Below the pieces are notes generated by a model that was not told the origin of the DNA, made no database searches, and saw only the letters and a program-made list of their open reading frames with translations. Made by a program: the position numbers and the translations under genes. Below are positions 1 to 887 of a stretch of DNA of 887 nucleotides, in pieces. Source of the DNA: Escherichia coli (lineage in GTDB: Bacteria > Pseudomonadota > Gammaproteobacteria > Enterobacterales > Enterobacteriaceae); the NCBI RefSeq assembly GCF_003334305.1, contig NZ_QOWS01000067.1, one strand, 5' to 3'. Position 1 is the first letter of the stretch. Each line of letters begins with the position of its first letter.

Positions 1-69
1 CCCCTGCAGCGGGTCATAATAGCGGTGGCGGTTGTAATACAGGCCGGACTCCTCATCATACTGCTGCCC
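1..69 (-). other. N-terminal part of the RHS repeat-associated core domain (precedes the PxxxxDPxGL core/toxin boundary, which is off-window)
   Basis: Translation of nt 69..1 on the minus strand is [23 protein letters not shown]. The [20 protein letters not shown] pattern is the conserved opening of the Rhs core-associated domain. The domain is truncated by the window edge. Confidence 0.7.
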
Positions 70-887
70 CGGCAGCCGGATAAGCTGCTGCAGCTGATGC
101 GGGTTCTCTTCATTCAGCAGGTTGCCCCATTCATCATATTCTGCGCACCACGCTGTTGCCCCTTCCGTGCTGATGAGCGCCAGCGGCAGGCCGCGATGGT
201 CGCAGTGGTACAGGTGGATTTTTCGCGCCGGCGTGTACACCGGGTCCATCTGGTTTTGCATCTGCTCCACGGTCAGGCCGCACGATGCCAGCCAGCGGCG
301 GCTTTCCTCACTCACCCGGTCAGCCAGGATTTCACTTTCCAGCCGGTCGAGCATCTGCACCAGCACCGGCGGGAACACCACACTGCCACCGTCTTCGCCG
401 CCGGACTGCTGAAGCGCATCCGCCAGGCTGCGGCGCTGCGTTCTGGCCAGTTCACCGGTGGCAGTTTCAACTCTGATGAGTGGTGTGAAGCTCCCCGGCT
501 GATAAATCGTCTGGATGCGGCTCCTGTCGTTCTGTATCGTGGTCAGCCGGTCGCCGTCCCAGCCGTACCAGGTCACTTGCGGTTTCCGTGACAGCGACAT
601 CCAGCCCGTCAGGTCCCGTTCACGCCGCCATACCCGTTTTGCCACCCTGCGGCCCAGCGGGTCGTAAAGATAGCGACTTTCGACCAGCGGCTCTTCATAT
701 TGTGTCCGCGTGTAGTGCACCAGCCGGTGCTGACTGTCGTAATGGTACCGGTGAGTCCGCTCATCATCCGTGCGGATAACCCCTTCCGGGATGAGGTCGG
801 TTTTCTCTGTCAGCCTGCCGTGACGGTCATACCGGTAAAGATAGTGCGCGTCACGGGCGATACGGTTATCCGGCCACATGCTGAGGG
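1..887 (-). CDS. Rhs family YD-repeat core protein, internal fragment (C-terminal part of the conserved core; partial at both ends)
   Basis: Seen in sequence: the minus-strand frame with codons at + coordinates 3k+1..3k+3 is open for all 295 codons (first full codon 883-885, last 1-3). Hand translation, N->C: [295 protein letters not shown]. Established knowledge: it contains YD-repeat consensus motifs (YxYDxxGRL-like) and the [12 protein letters not shown] signature that opens the RHS repeat-associated core domain. From memory it closely resembles the E. coli RhsA/B/C-type core, but I cannot assign a paralogue or species, so no gene symbol is given. No start or stop codon of the gene lies in the window. 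Confidence 0.93.
544..843 (-). other. Block of four YD-repeat motifs within the Rhs core (protein-level repeats)
   Basis: Seen in the translation: [11 protein letters not shown] (aa 15-25, nt 811-843), [10 protein letters not shown] (aa 47-56, nt 718-747), [12 protein letters not shown] (aa 72-83, nt 637-672), WYGWDGDRL (aa 106-114, nt 544-570). Spacing between motifs is about 25-34 residues, as expected for RHS/YD beta-hairpin repeats. A further degenerate copy, [14 protein letters not shown], lies at nt 175-216. Confidence 0.8.

Follow-up and report, generated by a model that had tools for sequence, protein, structure and literature searches.

Reading frame and anatomy of the window

The 887-base stretch analysed here (the window; 61.3% G+C) carries on its minus strand an internal coding fragment of an Rhs gene, which runs from base 885 to base 1 through 295 codons without a stop, with bases 886–887 forming part of the preceding codon. 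Six-frame translation, in which an in-frame stop was looked for, gave none in this frame and 1, 7, 9, 16, and 18 stops in the remaining five, bearing out the single stop-free minus-strand frame described in an earlier note on this DNA. A run of 295 codons free of stops would arise from base composition alone with a probability of 7.7e-5, and just 4 of 5000 mononucleotide shuffles left at least one of the six frames open. The GC content at the three codon positions (0.66/0.43/0.74) and the pN/pS of the frame against its K-12 paralogues (0.04–0.12) are marks of a genuine coding frame.

Four YD motifs are legible in the first part of the translation, and this YD-repeat part closes with the conserved anchor YQPGSFTPL (Table 1). 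A non-YD segment follows, after which the beta repeats restart at the Pfam RHS motif, and the window then enters the Rhs repeat-associated core. It terminates at ...YYDPLQG, six codons short of the first DPxG, and the autoprotease motif and the toxin therefore lie outside it. The window itself has no start, stop, catalytic motif, or toxin, and by analogy with relatives would include part of the region that seals the shell, without the catalytic residues.

Table 1. Features of the window (coordinates 1–887) and of the K-12 orphan fragments compared with it (coordinates within the named locus).
Feature	Coordinates	Strand	Evidence or remarks
Stop-free internal coding fragment, 295 codons, Rhs core of the RhsA-B-C-F subfamily	1–885	-	Frame, profiles, DNA matches, pN/pS
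YD-repeat beta-hairpin shell wall (predicted), aa 1–142	460–885	-	TIGR01643, PDB alignments, predicted strands 15–142
YD motifs, aa 15–25, 45–55, 70–80, 104–114	811–843, 721–753, 646–678, 544–576	-	Legible in translation
Non-YD segment, aa 143–218	232–459	-	Five predicted alpha-helices; gap in PDB alignments
Pfam RHS protein motif PF03527, aa 223–259	109–219	-	E = 4.7e-16; predicted strands 221–260
Rhs repeat-associated core TIGR03696, aa 250–294	4–138	-	First 42 of 76 model positions; 37.8 bits
Shadow frame, non-gene	1–885	+ (frame 0)	One stop, TGA at 589–591
ybfO pseudogene fragment, downstream of rhsC	L004 5649–6670		1022 nt of 3' core, codons 899–1239
yibJ orphan fragment, downstream of rhsA	L002 7198–7652		456 nt of 3' core, codons 1087–1239
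ylbH orphan fragment, downstream of rhsD	L005 5983–6231		249 nt of 3' core

Comparison of the translation with Rhs and YD-repeat profiles, the check proposed in the earlier note, gave a strong match over the full length, with residues 1–295 colinear with positions 935–1229 of the 1261-position NCBIfam model NF041261 (RHS_core) at E = 2.3e-188. The score of 628.6 bits lies below the whole-protein cut-off of 2000 bits, which is out of reach for the fragment because it comprises 295 of about 1250 core residues; the 1394-aa protein of E. coli A7, whose gene contains the identical DNA, scores 2632.8 bits on the same model. Among the families that the note had named, TIGR01643 (YD repeat) matched two stretches at 31.3 bits (cut-off 15.8), TIGR03696 (Rhs_assc_core) exceeded its cut-off of 32.5 bits, and PF05593 (RHS_repeat) gave only weak matches (E = 0.06 and 0.1). 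The order given there, with YD repeats ahead of the beginning of the associated core, is likewise present, but it omits the roughly 75-residue non-repeat segment at aa 143–218, which is predicted to be entirely helical. Nothing contradicts the family assignment.

Subfamily, copies, and alternative readings

At the DNA level, 3889 of the 5426 complete E. coli genomes surveyed (∼72%) contain the stretch, at 20,057 places in total with a median of 5 per genome, and its identity is at least 95% in 3876 E. coli records. Its description in the earlier note as the conserved and non-novel part of the gene is correct. The sole 100% match is in E. coli A7 (NZ_CP028767.1, 211770–212656), where the window corresponds to codons 920–1215 of a 4185-nt gene located between rpmE and yiiX and encoding the 1394-aa RHS element core protein WP_240770953.1. 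In K-12 MG1655, the identity is 99.1% to rhsB, 98.1% to rhsA, and 97.0% to rhsC, ungapped over the 887 bases, and 77.3–77.6% to rhsD and rhsE, essentially ungapped. Membership of the RhsA-B-C-F subfamily was judged by a DNA divergence of a few percent from rhsA/B/C as opposed to about 22% from rhsD/E, and the window belongs to this core subfamily because its identity to rhsA/B/C is 97.0–99.1% and that to rhsD/E about 77%. K-12 RhsB (b3482), RhsA (b3593), RhsC (b0700), and the A7 protein share with it the same frame, YD motifs, helical module, and start of the Rhs-associated core, and the differences from the RhsA-B-C-F proteins amount to 0–27 bases, mostly synonymous, with nothing of substance among them. 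RhsD and RhsE also have the same architecture, including the helical module, and align colinearly and without gaps across the 295 residues, but at 77% DNA and 78–79% protein identity, with the helical module as the most diverged part.

It is therefore almost certain that the window comes from the interior of the conserved core of an Rhs protein of the E. coli type, in the RhsA-B-C-F subfamily, with the minus strand as the coding strand. Which of the loci rhsA, rhsB, rhsC, or rhsF it comes from is not given by the window because copies at different loci differ by 1–2 bases. Naming the locus from the A7 position (between rpmE and yiiX, with dsORF-f3 as a neighbor) was considered and dropped, as genes annotated rhsB or rhsC elsewhere are a single base away from the window. 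Rhs cores have been on record since the 1990s, and the window is an already known, ordinary, and highly repeated part of E. coli Rhs genes.

The earlier note had also placed the window inside an Rhs polymorphic-toxin gene, of which the Rhs core stands, but the window alone does not separate an intact gene from an orphan. Orphans of the ybfO type are silent core-plus-tip fragments displaced to a site downstream of a main rhs gene; they lack both a start codon and the N-terminal delivery region, and their expression depends on prior recombination with the main gene. Such an origin, which would affect only the intact-gene part of the reading and not the identity as Rhs core, is unlikely, though the likeliest of the alternatives. 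Orphan biology is documented (PMC3967940, PMC2935791), and K-12 ybfO covers the whole 887 bases at 97.2% identity without an in-frame stop, its core codons 899–1239 enclosing codons 920–1215 of the window. Moreover, the window has 20,057 places in the 5426 genomes as compared to 17,467 for a core segment of equal length immediately upstream. By this rough count, in which partial matches are included, ∼13% of copies occur without the upstream core, and about 87% of copies do have it. The sole 100% match lies inside a full-length 1394-aa gene, and the nearest K-12 copy is the full-length rhsB at 99.1%, above ybfO at 97.2%. The closest matches thus favor a full-length gene as the probable source of the window.

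The known orphans ybfO, yibJ, ylbH, and STM0292 of Salmonella LT2 have a stretch of 3' core in common with the window and differ from the main genes in lacking the N-terminal ∼900 codons and the start codon. In ybfO, the open frame together with a pN/pS of 0.07 suggests recent displacement or gene conversion and not long decay.

A true gene on the plus strand, in frame 0, is very improbable. This frame is nearly open, with open stretches of 196 and 98 codons on either side of its sole stop at 589–591, because it reads the codon register of the Rhs frame exactly in reverse, and in the Rhs frame TTA and CTA are absent and TCA occurs once. Its openness is a compositional by-product of this codon use, the family, DNA-annotation, selection, and fold evidence all falls on the minus frame, and no promoter-like site was found in the window; the plus-strand frame was consequently rejected as a gene and treated as a shadow of the Rhs frame. 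More improbable still, and already refuted, is a chance opening in G+C-rich DNA or a non-coding RNA or DNA-repeat element, for although 61.3% GC lowers the number of stops and a single sub-threshold Rfam match exists, only 4 of 5000 shuffles were stop-free, the profile match reaches E = 2e-188, DNA repeats are not significant, and the numbers of promoter-like and terminator-like sites resemble those in shuffled sequence.

With both strands scanned and a permissive threshold, Rfam returned this one match, to a trypanosomatid H/ACA snoRNA at 354–417 on the minus strand (21.5 bits against a gathering threshold of 47, E = 0.05), which was dismissed as chance. In the search for DNA repeats, only two short direct families with two copies each and two inverted pairs, both imperfect, emerged, all at chance level, and the YD repeats show no repetition in the DNA. 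Promoter-like sites numbered 0 as compared to 0.3 in shuffles, terminator-like sites numbered 1 as compared to 0.8, and the Chi site GCTGGTGG was absent from both strands of the window.

Predicted shell fold and the helical module

AlphaFold2, given the 295 residues and a 29-sequence alignment, produced a model with a mean pLDDT of 88.8 and a pTM of 0.77 that contains beta-hairpins at 15–142 and 221–290 with five helices within 143–212. A Foldseek search of this model against the PDB placed Rhs shells of the T6SS (type VI secretion system) in the top 14 positions (Tse5, RhsA, Tse15, Advenella and S. bongori Rhs, RhsP, and Rhs1), with a probability of 1.00 and query-normalised TM-scores mostly of 0.52–0.60 for the best chains, followed by teneurins and TcB/TcC. 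The fragment is accordingly predicted to adopt the beta-cocoon (YD-shell) fold. To our knowledge, no structure has been solved for the E. coli RhsA-B-C-F subfamily.

The solved T6SS shells, namely, Tse5 of P. aeruginosa (8cp6), S. bongori Rhs (8qjb-d), RhsA of P. protegens (7q97), Tse15 of A. baumannii (8uxt), and Rhs1 of P. laumondii (7pq5), share the cocoon and the C-terminal core with the modelled fragment, at 15–32% sequence identity in the Foldseek alignments. By sequence, the PDB matches to Rhs shells have E values between 4e-25 and 2e-4 and include Tse5, S. bongori Rhs, P. protegens RhsA, and Tse15. The first two of these align over aa 3–143 and again over aa 219–293, with aa 1–142 corresponding to the shell wall at Tse5 864–984 and S. 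bongori Rhs 1193–1313, and the other PDB matches cover aa ∼219–294 only; the C-terminal part, aa 219–295, also aligns to P. protegens RhsA, Tse15, RhsP, and Tre23-Rhs1. The TcB/TcC insecticidal cocoons and the teneurins belong, like these proteins, to the YD-shell class of folds and likewise have a conserved sealing region at the C-terminus (PMC8765631), but they are distant (12–16% identity, TM-score 0.2–0.45) and differ in their plugs and delivery, and teneurins do not undergo self-cleavage (PMC8765631).

Residues 143–218 form, with good confidence in the model, a predicted non-YD module of five helices (aa 143–147, 154–161, 173–187, 193–201, and 206–212) that interrupts the beta-repeat shell. 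No PDB entry aligns by sequence to aa ∼143–218, an interval that Tse5 spans with about 30 residues and S. bongori Rhs with about 3. Among 1.84 billion representative proteins searched, 12,336 relatives were recovered at E ≤ 0.001, and the two anchors of the linker, YxPGSFxPL and HCDH[R/L]G[L/T]P, were both located in 66 of the best 150 of these 12,336. The distance from anchor to anchor is 76–113 aa in all 66, and a recognizable pattern is maintained in the closer relatives among them. Between the RhsA-B-C-F and RhsD/E groups, the identity is 64.5% in the helical module and ∼84% in the beta parts. In a literature check that was not exhaustive, no description of such a module was found in one structural and bioinformatic preprint on Rhs shells.

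That this module is no passive loop but a unit with a function of its own in the enterobacterial Rhs lineage is a tentative and rather doubtful reading. It is raised because the module diverges fast between the two groups yet is kept in 66 of 66 anchored relatives, and because it is absent or much shorter in those solved cocoons whose alignment covers both of its flanks. Such a unit could serve as a surface for a partner protein, or as a gate or contact for the encapsulated toxin. The module is the only slightly unusual item in the window.

Proposed role of the stretch and the A7 gene beyond it

The window region would supply the final turns of the beta-cocoon wall built of YD repeats, followed by the helical module and the first half of the conserved C-terminal Rhs core. 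As in the solved Rhs and Tc proteins, the C-terminal region would spiral inward and seal one end of the cage around the variable toxin, and the DPxG-18-DPxG aspartyl autoprotease motif and the toxin would begin just beyond the window. In P. protegens RhsA and P. laumondii Rhs1, the conserved C-terminal region closes one end of the cocoon, its aspartates catalyze an autocleavage that is required for toxicity, and the toxin is released (PMC8765631, PMC8636562). The near-identical multi-copy DNA would in addition provide the homology that links full-length rhs genes with downstream orphan toxin fragments, and recombination across the shared stretch would swap the toxin tips, so that the stretch may double as a recombination substrate of the system. 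The Rhs core closes with the hyperconserved DPXG-(18)-DPXG motif, and under the C-terminal displacement model, recombination inside the core displaces the tips (PMC2935791). In Salmonella, an orphan toxin was shown to become active when the orphan recombines with the main gene over 522 bp of core that the two share (PMC3967940). We infer the roles in encapsulation, sealing, autocleavage, and recombination from these published relatives; the frame, family, subfamily, copy number, and predicted fold come from the present analysis.

In the A7 gene, the window is directly followed by RYITQ, DPIGL, 18 residues, DPLGL, and a C-terminal tip that matches Pfam DUF4329 (E = 1e-15) and has no NCBIfam match. 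These flanks describe the A7 gene, and the source of the window itself may differ in tip and immunity gene. Downstream of the A7 gene (L001 10429–12265), the region is a decayed neighborhood, as dsORF-f3, an IS1 transposase gene, and yiiX are all frameshifted.

The N-terminus of the A7 protein, MSGKPAARQGDMTQYGGSIVQGSAGVRIG (L001 6243–6692), shows a weak and partial PAAR_motif match (aa 2–20, model positions 51–69 of 70, E = 0.18), followed by DUF6531 (E = 4.8e-18). No vgrG or other T6SS gene occurs in the 6.2 kb upstream or the 8.5 kb downstream of the gene, a survey of 9 kb on either side of the window match at one locus, with which delivery in trans is still compatible; the neighbors are hslUV, ftsN, cytR, priA, rpmE, IS1, yiiX, metJBLF, and katG. 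Linkage of rhs to vgrS has been described as "not true in E. coli" (PMC2935791). How the proteins of this subfamily are mounted and exported is not evident from sequence because the PAAR match is weak and no vgrG or T6SS gene lies nearby, and the delivery route, by T6SS or otherwise, is not legible from the window.

The stretch itself is of little import and is useful as context. Past position 1 of the window, downstream in the gene, the DPxG-18-DPxG motif, the variable toxin tip, and the immunity gene are expected, and any novelty would lie there. A multi-copy repeat whose copies are 97–100% identical is a known source of both misassembly and real chromosomal rearrangement, and windows inside it therefore need caution in scans. 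Four database proteins, P0001 (509 aa), P0031, P0043, and P0074, are scrambled concatenations of the window region, and in P0001, aa ∼212–277 occur three times over, with an out-of-frame tail at the end. Such scrambles most likely stem from the misassembly of short reads across the multi-copy repeat, and less likely from real recombination.
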